From: Candidatus Falkowbacteria bacterium RIFOXYA2_FULL_47_19
Lineage (GTDB): Bacteria > Patescibacteriota > Patescibacteriia > Patescibacteriales > UBA12075
Reading direction: 5' to 3'
DNA: 64,000 bases
NCBI GenBank assembly: GCA_001780275.1
Contig: MFGB01000023.1
Location: forward strand, 69,375 to 133,374
The translations under genes and the position numbers were made by a program. Every line of letters begins with the position of its first letter. Within the stretch, counting starts at the first letter, position 1. The notes beneath the pieces are model-generated. The model saw only the letters and a program-made list of their open reading frames with translations. It ran no database searches and was not told the origin of the DNA. Shown one piece after another: positions 1 through 36,182 of this stretch.

Positions 1-3000
1 TTACCATTTTTATCAATCGGAATTACAATTTTTATATCTTTAATAATATTTACCGTAATTCTTTTGTTTTGCTCTCCACGCGCATATTGCTTAAGATTTT
101 CTTTTAAAAAAGAATAAACAAAATCTAAAGAAATATTTTTTATAGATTTTTTAGGGATCAACGCACCACAATGCGTAGTCATGCTAAATTTATTTCTCCT
201 TAAAAAAACTGTCCCTGCATGCACGCCGTCAGTTGTCCAGGTTATACAATTACAATCATAATCATATGTATTTATATTTCCTATTATTCCTTCGTCAACA
301 GTTTGCGAGGAATAAAGAGGATATTGGCCTCCATTATTTTGTATATATTTATTTGTATATTTTGATTTTCCTTTTTCAATATCAAATATATCTTTGATGC
401 GTTCTGTCTTATTGTTTCCTGAAGGAGCTTTTATTTCTATATTTAAATCATTAATTTTTTTCTTATATTCTTCGATCCGTGCTTTTGTTTCCTCTACAAA
501 TACTAGCTTTTCAACTATTTGATTTTGAGAAATTATATCAATTTCACCATACGTATCAACAGGAAAATCAATTTCAATATCAGCCAACATCGAAGGATAA
601 ACTTTTGTAAATTCATCCTCGCCATTTTCTCCCTTACGACCTTTTGCCAAATTTCTTAAAATAGGTTCTAGCTTATGCTTAACATATTTTATATTGATAT
701 TATCTTTTTTTGGTTTTAACAGTCCTCTATCACCATTTATTGAAAATTTTCCTGAAATTATTTTTATATACCCAGCAAAACCGTTCGTTGCCCAAGTAAG
801 AAATTCGCCATCAAAGTCATAAGCATTAATATGTGTTAATGGGGCATTATTAGAAGCAGAATAAACTGCGAATTTACCCTTATTTTTATCCCCATATTTC
901 TTTGTGTATTTTGAGAGGCCTTTTTCAATATCAAATAATTCTTTGAGCAAAAAAGGTTTATTATTTATTTTAGTCTTTTTTTTTTCTGAAATTTCCTTTA
1001 TTTCATCTTGAAATTCTTTAATTGAATTTCCAACATCACTGATTATTGAAGCAAACTCTAAAAGCGTTACCTTTTCTTTCTTTTCTCTTATACCAATTTC
1101 AATTTTTTCTTTTTCTGTCCACCAATTATCAATTATCCAACTTTCTTCAATATTATCAGTAAATTTACTTAGAGGTTGCAATTTACATCTTTTGTCAGTA
1201 TTAATTTTTTCAAACCCCTTTTTATTTCCTTTAAAAAATGAGTACAAAGCAACAGCTTCCTGCAGATCATTCTGATCAATATCAAAGCGGTAAATATTTC
1301 TCGATTCCCCTATCTCGCTTACTAAATACGTAAATATTGGATCTTTTTGAAAATCTTTTTTATCAATTTTTTTTGTAATAGCTAAAATGTATGTCTTTTT
1401 ATTAGTTGTAAAAAAGGTATTTAACGGCAAAGAAATTATTCCATCAATATAACACTCGTCTAAAATAAACTCTCTTAAATTTCTATCGTTTTGACGATTT
1501 AAGATTCCGTCTGGAATAACTACAAATGCCTTCCCTCCTGGTTTAAGGGCACGTATTACCCACTCCATAAAAAGCCCTTCTACCCCCATGGCATTTACTT
1601 TATAGTAATTGATTAAATCGCCGTCTTTTTTGATTTCATCCTTTAAATTACCGCTTCCACTCGTAACATATGGGGGGTTAGTTAGAATTAAATCATATTC
1701 ATTTTCTACAGGATCAGATAATGTTCCCAGAATGGAATTTGTTTTTAATGTAAAACTATCATTAAACAGTTTTGCAAATTCTTTCGTATATGTAGGGTTA
1801 TCTTTAATCAAATCAGAAAAATAAATTAACATATTTGCTTTTGCTAATATGATTGTCTTTTGTTCATCCTTGTCAAAACCTTTATCAAAACCATGAATAA
1901 TAATTTTGGGAGTAATCCCATTTTTATTAATTTTATAAAATTCATCCAGCCTTGTAACTAATGGCTCAAGAAGAAATTTGCCAACACCACAAGCAGGATC
2001 ACAAATTTTTATCCCTTCTTTAATATTGTCTTTCGCCATTTCTATAATTGGCCGAATTACTTTCAACGGAGTAAAAAACTGTCCCCAATTTTTTTTACTA
2101 ATACTTTCTTTTAAGAAGCTTTCAAAAAGCTGACTTTTAAAGTCATAGTCTATATGTTCCAATTTTCCATATTTGTTAAATTTATCTAAAACGGTTTTGA
2201 ATGTTGTACTATAACCCTTTACTGCTTTCTGGTCTTTGCTTACAAAAATTGTACCATTGATAATTGTTGTCTTATCATCTATATTTTGTGGAAACAATTC
2301 TTTAATTTTTGGACGAACGGTGTTTGCATAATACTCTAAAACAAACCCCTGATCTCTTTTGTCATATAGATTCATCAAATACTCAAAATTTTCAGGCTCT
2401 TGTAGTACTTCAAGGTCACTAAGATACTTAAAAATAAATAACTCAACAAAAGTATAAAGACAATTTTCAGGGGTAGCACCACTTACCGACCAAATGTCTT
2501 GCCAAATACTTTTTGCTAAATTAGTTGGGTTTATTAATTTTTTGGGCTTAATATTATCATTTTGCTCATTAATTGATTCGTTAATCTTTTGAATCATTTC
2601 TGCTAACTTATCGTCTTTAGGATCAAACAAATATTTTATTTCTTTTCCCTCTTCGTCTTTAATTCTATTATTTGTTAGAGCATTAACCCACACGGATTCT
2701 TTTGTGTCTGTTGCAATAAATATTTTGGCTCCAAGTTTTTTTGCTACTTCAATTTCTTGTTTTATAGCTTTATTTTTCTGAGCTTCTGTTTTGAATTCCT
2801 GAGGAGTCTTATACTCAATAACTGCAATAACTTGTTTTTTTTGTATTACAAGCGCGTCTGGTTTTTTCTTTTCTAAAATACCATAATCAGTATCACGAAT
2901 TTTTTTATATCTTTTTAAGGCCTTTACAGTCGTAGCGCCTATATTATAAAAATCCCACTTTCCGATTTTAGGTGGGTTTTCAACAAGATCTTTTTGTAAT

Positions 3001-3013
3001 AATTCTTCGCTCA
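1..3013 (-). CDS. Single-chain type IIB/IIG restriction-modification-specificity fusion (PD-(D/E)XK nuclease + gamma-class N6-adenine methyltransferase + two HsdS-like target recognition domains); C-terminus runs off the window start
   Basis: Absent from the ORF track because there is no stop in the window. My minus-strand translation from the ATG at 3011-3013 stays open for >1000 codons (MSEELLQKDLVENPPKIGKWDF...). Motifs in order: KPDALVIQKKQVIAVIEYK (PD...ExK); ICDPACGVGKFLLEP (AdoMet motif I); LILTNPPYV (NPPY motif IV); then two paralogous TRD starts, LFDIEKGLSKYTKKYG and IFDIEKGKSKYTNKYI, separated by a charged helical spacer. This architecture matches AloI/PpiI/TstI-type enzymes. Confidence 0.8.
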
Positions 3014-3083
3014 TAATAATATCATTATTTTTTGCTTATTTCTGCCAATTTTTCAGTATTTTTTTTACTGTGTATAACAGTAA

Positions 3084-3138
3084 TATTATACCATAGAAAA
3101 TATATGAAAGCCAACTTGGGGGTGCGTATTATACCATA
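3084..3138 (-). promoter_or_regulatory. Two copies of a 12-bp direct repeat that read TGGTATAAT (extended -10 like) on the minus strand, upstream of the RM gene
   Basis: tattataccata occurs at 3084-3095 and 3127-3138. The reverse complement TATGGTATAATA contains TGnTATAAT. The nearer copy is ~70-80 nt upstream of the RM ATG. Confidence 0.35.
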
Positions 3139-3348
3139 AAACCTCTTTTTTTAAAATTATTTTATCCACACTTTCTTTTCCTCGGTAAAAAATGTATAAT
3201 TAAAAATATGTTAATGTCAAATAAAGCTACCTATGAAATCAATTTGTTTAATAAAAACAAAAATAAAATTACATGTTTATTCAATACCGAAAACTTAAAA
3301 TCATTGGAGTAAGAGCCGGTTTTATTGTCAACAAAGTTATATATTAAG

Positions 3349-3374
3349 CTCGGGTTTATTGCCCGGGTTTTTTT
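3349..3374 (+). terminator. Hairpin plus T-run immediately before the first gene of the phage-like element
   Basis: The sequence is gctcgggtttattgcccgggttttttt: a short GC stem followed by T7. Confidence 0.45.
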
Positions 3375-3382
3375 AAATCAAA

Positions 3383-13176: not shown

Positions 13177-13218
13177 TCGACTTCAATCGACAATCGAAAA
13201 TCGTCAATCGAAAATCAC
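13177..13218. repeat. AATCGAAA-type word repeat
   Basis: The sequence is tcgacttcaatcgacaatcgaaaatcgtcaatcgaaaatcac. It overlaps the rpmG stop codon. Confidence 0.7.
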
Positions 13219-13370
13219 TTCGTTTCTTTGTGCTTGACGTGCTTCTTGCAGTACTTGCAGTACTTGTTCATCTCCAGGCGGCCCTTCAGGGTCTTTTTGT
13301 TCTTGCGCGAAAAATAATTGACGCGCTTGCACTCCGTACACTCTAATTTTATCATGTTATCCTGCGACAT
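13215..13370 (-). CDS. rpmG: 50S ribosomal protein L33
   Basis: Below the ORF-track cutoff. Hand-translated: [51 protein letters not shown]. It shows the CxxC...CxxC zinc-ribbon L33 signature and ends with TGA. Confidence 0.9.
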
Positions 13371-22418: not shown

Positions 22419-22871
22419 TCACCTCCCGAAAATTCTCGTTTCTATCTTCCCCTGGACTAATTCCAGGTCCTTCTCCTTCAGGCCGGCGTTTATTTCCCGG
22501 CGATAAAAAGATGAACTGCGCCAATATTTTCTTTCGTCGTATTTAAGCGGCGCCGGCCGAAACGGGCGCCAATAACGGCTGACCCTGAAAGCGGCGCGTA
22601 TTCCGAATTCATCCAGCAAAAAACCGTAATAAGTCGTGCGGTTTCCGACCGGATGCCCTCCGCCCTGGATAAAAAGCCTGTCGCCGGAAGATCTTATTCC
22701 GTCCGCTTCTTCCCGGAAAATATGCCAAATCTCATCCCGGGCCTCTTTTTTCAGAAAAAAATATTTTTGCCTTTCGCTTAAGAATCTCCCGCCGCGCCTG
22801 GATAGGCGGTGGCAGGCGGATAAAATCTCGCGACCCGCCGTCAAACACGGCAAAATAATTTTCGCTTCCAT
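22419..22871 (-). CDS. Hypothetical protein within the NAD cluster
   Basis: 150-aa ORF with an AAGGAG RBS. No motif recognised. Confidence 0.45.
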   Translation of the reverse strand: MEAKIILPCLTAGREILSACHRLSRRGGRFLSERQKYFFLKKEARDEIWHIFREEADGIRSSGDRLFIQGGGHPVGNRTTYYGFLLDEFGIRAAFRVSRYWRPFRPAPLKYDERKYWRSSSFYRREINAGLKEKDLELVQGKIETRIFGR

Positions 22872-35369: not shown

Positions 35370-35380
35370 ATTTTTCAGGG

Positions 35381-35467
35381 CGGAGGGAGTGGGATTTGAA
35401 CCCACGGTAGGCGTTAACCCACAACAGTTTTCAAGACTGTCGCCTTAAACCGCTCAGCCATCCCTCC
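35381..35467 (-). tRNA. tRNA-Ser (anticodon UGA)
   Basis: Hand-folded: acceptor GGAGGGA/TCCCTCC; anticodon arm ACAGT-CTTGAAA-ACTGT; long variable arm; T-arm GTGGG-TTCAAAT-CCCAC. Confidence 0.85.
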
Positions 35468-35517
35468 ATTCTAAATATCGAGTGTCAAATCACCGTTCAA
35501 CACTCGACATTTGATTG

Positions 35518-35607
35518 CGGAGAGGGAGGGATTCGAACCCTCGAGAGGCTTTTAAGACCCCTAGCACGTTAGCACCGTGTCGCTTTCGACCACTCAGCCA
35601 CCTCTCC
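35518..35607 (-). tRNA. tRNA-Ser (anticodon GCU)
   Basis: Hand-folded, 90 nt: acceptor GGAGAGG/CCTCTCC; anticodon loop GTGCTAA; long variable arm; T-arm GAGGG-TTCGAAT-CCCTC. Confidence 0.8.
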
Positions 35608-35637
35608 GAAGTATCATTATTTTTTATTTTTCGCGAT

Positions 35638-35784
35638 GGATTCGCCCAGTCATCCGACTGGACGCCGGGTCGGATGACCCGGCGAACCCTCGAGAGGCTT
35701 TTAAGACCCCTAGCACGTTAGCACCGTGTCGCTTTCGACCACTCCCCGCCCGAGGCGGGTCCGCCTTGGGCGGAAGCCACCTCT
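35638..35784 (-). pseudogene. tRNA-Ser(GCU)-derived pseudo-copy, truncated at both ends, with a 30-nt insert in the D-loop and a 40-nt insert in the T-loop
   Basis: It is identical to the neighbouring tRNA from position 3 through the T-loop, apart from two GC-rich inserts. The D-loop insert is cccgcccgaggcgggtccgccttgggcgga (35745-35774). The T-loop insert is gcccagtcatccgactggacgccgggtcggatgacccggc (35644-35683). The 3' acceptor strand is missing. Confidence 0.8.
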
Positions 35785-35797
35785 TTATAAAATATTA

Positions 35798-36049
35798 TTA
35801 TTTAATCGTATCACGCAAAAGATATTTTATCCTTTCTCTGCCCTGACCAGACTTTAAAAATTTCTCTTCCGTTCTAGCATCTTTTTCTGATTTGAAAACT
35901 TCATAATAGACCAAAACCCAGGGTCCATTATTGTTTGTAAAATCTGATTTTCGAAAATTATGTTCTTTTATCCGTCTTTTTAAATCAGAAGTAAATCATT
36001 TATATAACTTATTGTTTTTTTCGCTTTTTAGTATGTAAACATAGAACAT
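35798..36049 (-). pseudogene. Small GIY-YIG nuclease-domain gene (83 codons) with an in-frame TGA at the conserved YIG glycine; AT-rich
   Basis: Hand-translated: MFYVYILKSEKNNKLYK*FTSDLKRRIKEHNFRKSDFTNNNGPWVLVYYEVFKSEKDARTEEKFLKSGQGRERIKYLLRDTIK. The TGA is the complement of 35996-35998. It aligns with the Gly in the LY-x-G-x-T-x-D-L motif of the UPF0213/GIY-YIG family. Confidence 0.75.
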
Positions 36050-36061
36050 AACGAATTCAGC

Positions 36062-36109
36062 CCACTCCCCGCCCGAGGCGGGTCCGCCTTGGGCGGAAGC
36101 CACCTCTCC
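36062..36109 (-). repeat. Second copy of the tRNA-Ser 5' segment carrying the same 30-nt D-loop insert (direct repeat flanking the GIY-YIG gene)
   Basis: ccactccccgcccgaggcgggtccgccttgggcggaagccacctct is repeated at 35739-35784 and 36062-36107. This copy also includes the complete 5' end GGAGAGG. Confidence 0.85.
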
Positions 36110-36182
36110 ATGCCTATATTTTATTATTTCCCTGATTTATGCTATAATTACTATATAAAAATAATCAAAAAAAGTCAAATAT

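Follow-up and report, generated by a model that had tools for sequence, protein, structure and literature searches.

A GIY-YIG nuclease gene with a stop codon at its YIG glycine lies in a cassette wedged into a tRNA-Ser gene of a Falkowbacteria genome

Phage T4 carries SegB, a free-standing GIY-YIG homing endonuclease gene that lies in the T4 tRNA gene cluster (PMC2330249). In REP/REPIN–RAYT systems, a single nuclease/transposase gene is flanked by its cognate repeat (PMC3116915, PMC3333891), and the passages of PMC10085805 that cite Paquin et al. 2000 describe fungal mitochondrial double-hairpin elements (DHEs) as dispersed in intergenic regions and rRNA genes. We analysed a stretch of 64,000 nucleotides (nt) from Candidatus Falkowbacteria bacterium RIFOXYA2_FULL_47_19 (contig MFGB01000023.1), hereafter the window, that contains a GIY-YIG gene with an in-frame TGA at the glycine of its YIG motif. 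Together with a 30-nt double hairpin, this gene forms part of a cassette in a tRNA-Ser(GCT) gene. An earlier note on this DNA had left two readings of the TGA open: a GGA-to-TGA point mutation, making the gene a fresh pseudogene, or a cassette that originated in, or is expressed under, a code in which UGA specifies glycine (translation table 25). The best explanation, which we consider very likely, is that the gene is a fresh pseudogene of a GIY-YIG cassette that invades tRNA genes.

The locus resembles T4-like SegB in having a GIY-YIG gene that stands outside introns and among tRNA genes, in its presence or absence between relatives and in the inheritance of the gene together with flanking sequence. 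Seg proteins have about 200 residues or more and include a DNA-binding domain, whereas the protein encoded here has 83 residues and consists of the catalytic domain alone. The cassette also differs from SegB in that it interrupts a tRNA gene and restores it through a partial duplication, has a double hairpin at the junction and resides in a cellular Patescibacteria genome, not in a phage; its cleavage activity is predicted. In size and domain, the protein matches the UPF0213/COG2827 family, which includes its best matches of solved structure (PDB 1zg2, BH0048, E = 9e-7; PDB 1ywl, EF2693, E = 2e-3), both labelled 'Hypothetical UPF0213 protein' in PDB. The clade described here differs from that family: its genes occur in multiple copies, are linked to tRNA genes and vary in location.

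The GIY-YIG open reading frame (ORF) and its internal stop are placed as follows.

35798–36049, minus strand: GIY-YIG ORF, 83 codons and a TAA stop, with a 12-nt spacer (36050–36061) before its start
35998–35996, minus strand: in-frame TGA, codon 18, at the Gly of the YIG motif

The reverse complement of 35798–36049 translates as MFYVYILKSEKNNKLYK, one internal stop, FTSDLKRRIKEHNFRKSDFTNNNGPWVLVYYEVFKSEKDARTEEKFLKSGQGRERIKYLLRDTIK and the terminal stop. With Gly modelled at codon 18, the protein matched the Pfam GIY-YIG profile PF01541 at 56.7 bits, against a cut-off of 22.6 (E = 3e-15); this match spans residues 1–68 of the 83, and we found no other convincing domain. A database search returned 356 homologues, the best of which were 76–81% identical to the ORF. 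Those with a named source come almost entirely from metagenome-assembled genomes of Parcubacteria/Patescibacteria, the closest being code-11 Parcubacteria, and most relatives are 79–87 residues long. The codon-18 position is Gly in 118 of 120 homologues (98%) and in all 25 of the closest. The ORF keeps Y3-V4-Y5, Y16, R26, H30 and E62, which are 96–100% conserved among the 120 homologues. Across the 32 columns with at least 90% conservation, it deviates once besides the stop (K69Q, a change found in seven homologues), and one deviation is the median for the family. These results bear out two statements of the earlier note, that the frame is otherwise intact and family-like and that its single stop falls exactly on the invariant YIG glycine. 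By descent, the gene thus appears to be a member of the GIY-YIG superfamily, and an ordinary one among the stand-alone UPF0213/COG2827-type proteins, that as written is predicted to be unable to make the domain.

The earlier note had also called the cassette AT-rich. This is true of the ORF (28% GC against 49% for the window) but not of its directly adjoining flanks, which are GC-rich hairpins and tRNA pieces, so that the AT-richness is confined to the ORF. Low GC is a trait of the family, the ORFs of relatives averaging about 8 points below their flanks. A tblastn search for paralogues in the 64-kb window found no copy besides the GIY-YIG ORF itself.

The ORF is embedded in pieces of a tRNA-Ser(GCT) gene, an arrangement that the earlier note overlooked: its 'cassette' is an insertion in a tRNA gene, with an architecture that is conserved among relatives. 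The features are given below in the direction of transcription; L213 is a locus of a related genome in which the same site is empty.

36150–36178, minus strand: promoter-like site of the sigma-70 type (TTGACT, 17 nt, TATAGT), 10 of 12 matches in a promoter scan; function putative
36098–36109, minus strand: fragment A, nt 1–12 of tRNA-Ser(GCT), GGAGAGGTGGCT, identical to nt 1–12 of the intact tRNA and colinear with the empty site of L213
36068–36097, minus strand: HP, a GC-rich double hairpin of 30 nt, TCCGCCCAAGGCGGACCCGCCTCGGGCGGG, which separates nt 12 from nt 13 of the tRNA
36062–36067, minus strand: tRNA nt 13–18 (GAGTGG), the end of tRNA homology by alignment to the tRNA
35785–35797, minus strand: 13-nt spacer from the ORF to copy B
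35638–35784, minus strand: copy B, a degenerate copy of tRNA-Ser(GCT), recognised by direct repeats to the tRNA pieces
35745–35774, minus strand: HP inside copy B, between nt 12 and 13, the same hairpin as the upstream HP
35643–35682, minus strand: HP2, a distinct 40-nt double hairpin in the T loop of copy B (fold −16.2 kcal/mol, z = −4.6)
35608–35637, minus strand: AT-rich 30-nt spacer from copy B to the intact tRNA, without counterpart in the empty site
35517–35607, minus strand: intact tRNA-Ser(GCT), called by ARAGORN and by Rfam (RF00005, 52.9 bits)
35378–35468, minus strand: tRNA-Ser(TGA), a neighbour outside the cassette, called by ARAGORN and Rfam

Fragment A is the original 5′ end of the interrupted tRNA gene. 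This displaced end lies 503 bp upstream of the intact tRNA-Ser(GCT), which is the functional copy. HP folds into two hairpins, each with a 6-bp stem and a 3-nt loop (−13.4 kcal/mol, z = −3.7); the 64-kb window has two copies of it, both within the cassette, and no solo hairpin. Copy B has mutations at nt 1–2, has lost the 3′ acceptor strand after AATCC and is missing from the tRNA calls of both ARAGORN and Rfam. The two direct repeats have lengths of 62 nt (D1) and 46 nt (D2), and both are 100% identical. We rejected an intron, whether of group I, of group II or of the archaeal bulge-helix-bulge type: Rfam at gathering thresholds detected only the four tRNAs of the window; the downstream tRNA is complete by itself, which makes the upstream piece a duplicate rather than an exon; the hairpin sites vary (nt 12/13, 21, 23, 36 and the T loop); and hairpins occur in proteins as well. 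In a sibling contig (L087) we observed a loss of 149 bp (window 35596–35744) that fits recombination between the two 62-nt repeats and leaves a single tRNA-Ser(GCT) with a D-arm hairpin and mutated nt 1–2, for which ARAGORN makes no call. This loss could be a real variant or an assembly collapse of the repeats.

The empty site comes from a related Falkowbacteria genome (L213, GCA_043801965.1), whose flanks are 83–93% identical to those of the window. In L213, the promoter region leads directly into an intact tRNA-Ser(GCT), without hairpin and without ORF. In the window, the matching upstream sequence enters nt 1–12, the hairpin and nt 13–18, after which the similarity breaks. Because the site is filled in the window and empty in L213, the 5′ part of the tRNA gene has received an insertion of 503 bp, the cassette, for which a duplicate compensates. 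The two genomes therefore show the presence/absence polymorphism at a conserved target gene that is expected of a homing gene. Two other loci, L009 and L011, lie in unrelated contexts and are 96% identical over the cassette only, which shows that the cassette moves as a unit, as do the tandem units and the mirror-image versions at tRNA 3′ ends described below. Separately, we observed two scars beside tRNA-Ser(TGA) in L213 (approximately 2000–2170), where there is no GIY-YIG ORF. One is a duplicated 3′ tRNA end with a T-loop hairpin; the other is a decayed copy of tRNA-Ser(TGA) with a degenerate 30-nt hairpin in its anticodon loop.

We then compared codon 18 among relatives, as the earlier note had proposed, using 98 tblastn matches across 81 loci. 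The codon was GGT in 37, GGA in 30, GGC in 17, GGG in 12 and GCT and GAC in one each; none had TGA. GGA is frequent among the closest relatives, so a single G-to-T change suffices to produce TGA. Other copies of the family are broken elsewhere, by a premature TGA at Trp44 (L040, 1630), a TAA at Tyr16 (L053, 2300) and a TAA at position 32 (L065, 1594); nonsense decay is therefore routine in the family. The window itself is read by code 11. Its non-overlapping code-11 ORFs of at least 150 codons number 45 and cover 80% of the sequence, one of them running to 2,933 codons. TGA terminates eight of the 45, including one that ends at 22419, as well as the L33-like ORF (rpmG) at 13215–13370 on the minus strand, in agreement with the earlier note's remark that the host uses TGA as a stop. 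With its uninterrupted and TGA-terminated ORFs, the window lacks the hallmark of table 25, in which TGA is unused as a stop. Open frames around the three triplets occurred at 5.9% for TGA, 5.8% for TAA and 8.3% for TAG, with no excess for TGA. ARAGORN called four tRNAs in the 64-kb window, Trp(CCA), Ser(TGA), Ser(GCT) and Arg(GCG), none with a UCA anticodon. The host proteins are those of Falkowbacteria, not of the table-25 lineages Gracilibacteria or Absconditabacteria: the RecG of the window and a neighbouring protein each have an identical counterpart in Candidatus Falkowbacteria bacterium RIFOXYB2_FULL_47_14.

These data bear on three alternatives to a nonsense mutation. Under a UGA=Gly code (table 25, as in Gracilibacteria or Absconditabacteria), whether that of the cassette's source or that of its present translation, the gene would be intact, and the stop does lie exactly on a near-invariant Gly in an ORF that is otherwise intact and far more AT-rich than the host. 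We nonetheless consider this origin highly improbable given the Falkowbacteria host with its long code-11 ORFs and TGA terminators, the open frames, the missing tRNA(UCA) and the relatives, of which the nearest belong to code-11 Parcubacteria and none has TGA at codon 18. The low GC is shared by the whole family, and the three remaining Gly codons of the ORF are GGA, GGT and GGC. The flanking tRNA pieces are exact (100%) copies of the host tRNA-Ser(GCT), so the cassette has been resident and recombining in this host. Nothing except the position of the stop speaks for a UGA=Gly or foreign origin. UGA is the leakiest bacterial stop, and read-through could in principle give low expression that throttles a toxic nuclease; the fully family-like remainder of the ORF and the fixation of TGA in seven contigs are compatible with this. 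Near-cognate read-through, however, would put Trp where the active-site motif has its conserved Gly, no relative has such an arrangement, TAA stops elsewhere in other copies resemble ordinary decay and the cassette's own tRNA copy is degenerate as well, and we regard regulated leakiness as unlikely. A sequencing or assembly error, with GGA as the true codon, has in its favour only the prior expectation for a single-base difference. It is the least probable of the three, as all seven contigs, from seven assembly records (ENA and JGI; compared at the contig level, some of them perhaps re-assembled from the same reads), show 100% identity over the cassette, TGA included; the stop is therefore real and fixed in the population. 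On this comparison, the TGA appears to be an ordinary and recent one-step GGA-to-TGA nonsense mutation, and we reject recoding. The earlier note held that one codon could not decide between its two readings; with the relatives, the host ORFs and the tRNA context added, the first, a fresh pseudogene, is favoured, and the second finds neither a host code nor a relative to support it.

The association with tRNA genes extends across the family. Among 95 related copies in the 81 loci, 48 lie no more than 130 nt upstream of a co-oriented tRNA. For the closest relatives this is nearly always tRNA-Ser, and distant relatives adjoin Tyr, His, Glu, Thr, Trp, Cys, Pro, Gln, Ala or Leu tRNAs. The first 12 nt of the same tRNA are repeated upstream of the ORF, with at most one mismatch, in 26 of the 48. 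Alignment of the upstream fragments places a 30-nt insert after tRNA nt 12–14, 21–23 or 34–36, and the distance from the insert to the end of the tRNA homology is always just 5–13 nt, ahead of the ORF. Copies at least 65% identical to the window ORF have the hairpin upstream in 13 of 15 cases and tRNA-Ser downstream in 13 of 15, compared with 2 of 23 and 1 of 23 for copies less than 50% identical. In distant clades, other hairpin pairs occur at the same spot (L021, L030, L064 and L077), and in L001, whose protein is 79% identical, the hairpin differs from that of the window through compensatory changes. L019 contains two units in tandem. L036 (1200–1500) and L042 (1500–1800) show the mirror image, with an intact tRNA (Leu or Glu), the ORF and then a 3′ tRNA fragment that consists of GGGTT, a hairpin in the T loop and CAAATCC onwards to the 3′ end of the tRNA. 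This fragment matches the upstream tRNA-Glu in L042; in L036 it does not match tRNA-Leu, as though it had been brought from another tRNA. A duplication that always starts at tRNA nt 1 would have hinted at an RNA intermediate, but we discarded this idea because the duplicates in L009, L010 and L011 take in approximately 10–27 nt of upstream sequence.

Two further observations concern these loci and their gene calls. In L011 (approximately 1745–1865), the ORF is followed by a hairpin-free copy of tRNA nt 1–18, a 65-nt AT-richer stretch with two possible hairpins by eye, a duplicate of the promoter region and the intact tRNA. The stretch looks like an ORF-less insertion of the same logic, comparable to copy B with HP2 in the window. 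The database proteins P0002, P0004, P0008 and P0007 have N- or C-terminal extensions that the rest of the family lacks. By eye, those of P0002 (MERWLRPGADQPRAG...) and P0007 (...GEVAEWPKAPHC) read as a translated tRNA fragment plus hairpin or downstream tRNA, and they would be gene-calling artefacts that arise because the hairpin is free of stops.

The double hairpin also occurs away from the nuclease gene. A scan of metagenome contigs for the hairpin core matched at least 120 stretches, from which 85 sites in 80 loci (L093–L172) were analysed. Among the matches listed, a GIY-YIG relative is found no more than 80 nt away for only 8 of the 85 sites, and we therefore rejected the idea that the hairpin marks GIY-YIG cassettes exclusively. 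Among the same matches, 37 of the 85 sites fall inside long ORFs, mainly in one frame, with SAQGGPASGW as the commonest peptide. Those in RecG and TrpRS are clean inserts of 9–10 residues relative to homologues: in L104 the RecG carries the peptide as a clean insert when compared with the RecG encoded in the window itself, and in L139 the TrpRS peptide corresponds to an exact 10-residue gap against PDB 5dk4. A DnaJ (L117) also holds the hairpin. By eye only, we further noted hairpin-bearing ORFs that are ClpB-like (L142) and MiaB-like (L138). Across 44 distinct copies, Watson–Crick pairing in the stems was 84–93%, against 30–52% in cross-hairpin controls, measured at positions that the search pattern left free (2–3 pair types). 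HP and HP2 each comprise two adjacent stable hairpins, and the stems of HP covary across the family. Copies at unrelated sites, including the inside of genes, mark the hairpin as dispersed, and the element is a dispersed 30-bp mini-insert with dyad symmetry. Within the 241 kb of gene-anchored loci, 35 of 40 double hairpins sit 7–58 nt upstream of a GIY-YIG start. Enrichment at GIY-YIG starts is far beyond chance, yet the hairpin is not exclusive to the gene.

One possibility is that the nuclease and the hairpin are functionally linked. A small dimeric nuclease might recognise or cut at the hairpin; alternatively, the hairpin might be mobile as the partner of the nuclease, or it might act as a spacer that interrupts the direct repeat. 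In one form of the link, the nuclease would recognise or mobilise its cognate hairpin, as RAYT does with REP/REPIN. A minimal 80-residue GIY-YIG nuclease and a 30-bp hairpin would then be the halves of one Patescibacteria mobile system, with an autonomous form that inserts in tRNA genes with a partial duplicate and a hairpin that also spreads alone, as an exact 10-codon insert (in RecG, TrpRS, DnaJ and, by eye, a ClpB-like ATPase). The enrichment upstream of GIY-YIG starts and the way in which the hairpin follows the protein clade are consistent with such a system, as are the different hairpin pairs that occupy the same place in distant clades, the 5–13 nt that separate the hairpin from the end of tRNA homology whichever tRNA position is used, and a dyad symmetry that would suit a small dimeric nuclease. 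By contrast, most sites found from the hairpin side, among the matches listed, have no nearby GIY-YIG gene, although those contigs are short, and the window has no solo hairpin. The association, which is one of sequence and not of biochemistry, may also reflect shared descent of the cassette or a shared preference for dispensable DNA. We therefore put the two-part system forward tentatively, as a possibility on the doubtful side.

For the insertion itself, the following course would account for the architecture. The nuclease would break an unoccupied tRNA gene, and repair would copy the cassette in, with the tRNA pieces on either side serving as portable homology arms; cassettes would thus most likely spread like free-standing homing endonuclease genes. 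The cassette, of about 0.5 kb and placed in the 5′ part of the tRNA, left the promoter and the first 18 nt behind, a remnant that HP splits at nt 12/13, and the downstream duplicate supplies a complete tRNA, so that the host keeps its tRNA. The captured tRNA promoter probably drives the ORF, which would be co-transcribed with the tRNA. This proposal is based on the consensus match and on gaps of 3–30 nt that leave scant space for another promoter; the promoter sequence is kept directly upstream of the intact tRNA-Ser(GCT) in L213. After fixation, selection for an active nuclease would cease and the gene would decay. Goddard and Burt reportedly described in 1999 a life cycle of homing endonucleases with such a degeneration phase. 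The window copy would be at the decay stage, with a stop in the ORF, copy B wrecked by HP, HP2 and a 3′ truncation, and the third copy intact. The 100% identity of the 46-nt repeats suggests gene conversion with fragment A as the donor, by which copy B may have been overwritten with the hairpin.

Several points weigh against explaining the locus as a homing-type cassette whose gene is a fresh pseudogene. The further decay that the earlier note had taken as a mark of a pseudogene was not found in the ORF: apart from the stop the ORF is normal, the loss of function hangs on one codon and the argument for a pseudogene consequently leans on the other evidence. Low-level read-through of the UGA may occur, and a suppressor tRNA may be encoded elsewhere, as the tRNA scan covers 64 kb of the genome. 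Nor is the hairpin restricted to the cassette, as the few sites near a GIY-YIG gene among the listed matches illustrate (8/85 within 80 nt). Characterised GIY-YIG homing endonucleases (I-TevI and Seg proteins) have a DNA-binding domain, and the 83-residue protein corresponds to a catalytic domain (approximately 80 residues) without one. In a simple homing model, the intact downstream tRNA would stay a target. Both cleavage by the nuclease and its target are predictions.

Judged by analogy, each ingredient of the cassette has a precedent, in SegB, Allomyces atp6, mitochondrial DHEs, Rickettsia palindromic elements (RPEs) and RAYT/REPIN. In Allomyces atp6, an endonuclease ORF reportedly entered the gene with a replacement gene end and left the old end behind, as Paquin et al. 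are said to have described in 1994. The cassette shares with that insertion an endonuclease ORF, a duplicated gene end and a displaced original end. For the hairpin, the nearest described thing seems to be the fungal mitochondrial double-hairpin elements and GC clusters, which are likewise short and GC-rich, with two adjacent hairpins, and suspected to be mobile. The element described here differs from DHEs, to which we liken it by description, in being bacterial, in its fixed length of 30 nt (10 codons) and in its tRNA-gene target. PMC10085805 calls such elements 'potentially mobile'. RPEs and REP/REPIN–RAYT resemble the present system as small palindromic repeats dispersed in a genome, with in-frame inserts in the case of RPEs and a gene beside the repeat in that of RAYT. 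RPEs, some of which reportedly lie in frame in protein genes (Ogata et al. are said to have found this in 2000), are about 100–150 nt long, compared with the 30 nt of the element here, for which mobilisation by a nuclease is hypothetical. The enzyme is also a GIY-YIG protein and not an HUH Y1 transposase as in RAYT. In the searchable literature, the coverage of which is incomplete so that this is absence of evidence only, we found no description of the cassette architecture or of a bacterial in-frame double hairpin, and a 2026 survey of tRNA introns in Patescibacteria mentions neither GIY-YIG nor hairpins. A GIY-YIG gene wedged into a tRNA gene beside a 30-base double hairpin is thus apparently an undescribed kind of cassette.

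Elsewhere in the window, positions 1–3035 on the minus strand hold a 1,011-codon ORF of 28% GC that continues past the window start. Its domains are N6_Mtase and Methylase_S (type I specificity), and its composition suggests that this restriction-modification gene was acquired. Window 1–3376 was for this reason rejected as a non-coding AT-rich island, since it holds this minus-strand ORF, truncated at the window edge.

A TGA on an invariant glycine in an AT-rich island of a candidate phyla radiation genome mimics a code-25 signal, and such cases are unfit as evidence of recoding. The cassette, more than the codon, is the valuable part of this locus. The empty-site comparison shows that, in Patescibacteria, GIY-YIG genes of the small stand-alone kind are mobile and insert in tRNA genes, where they keep the tRNA alive through a partial duplication and probably borrow its promoter. 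They are tied to a 30-nt double hairpin also found in frame within essential proteins. To our knowledge, the mobilisation machinery of such mini-palindromes is not established. If the two-part system is real, it would give bacteria a counterpart to the double-hairpin elements of mitochondria and would parallel RAYT/REPIN, with GIY-YIG as the enzyme. A functional link between nuclease and hairpin would provide a testable candidate enzyme for mobilising mini-palindromes, and it would account for some tRNA pseudogenes and for ORF calls that run through a tRNA fragment and hairpin.

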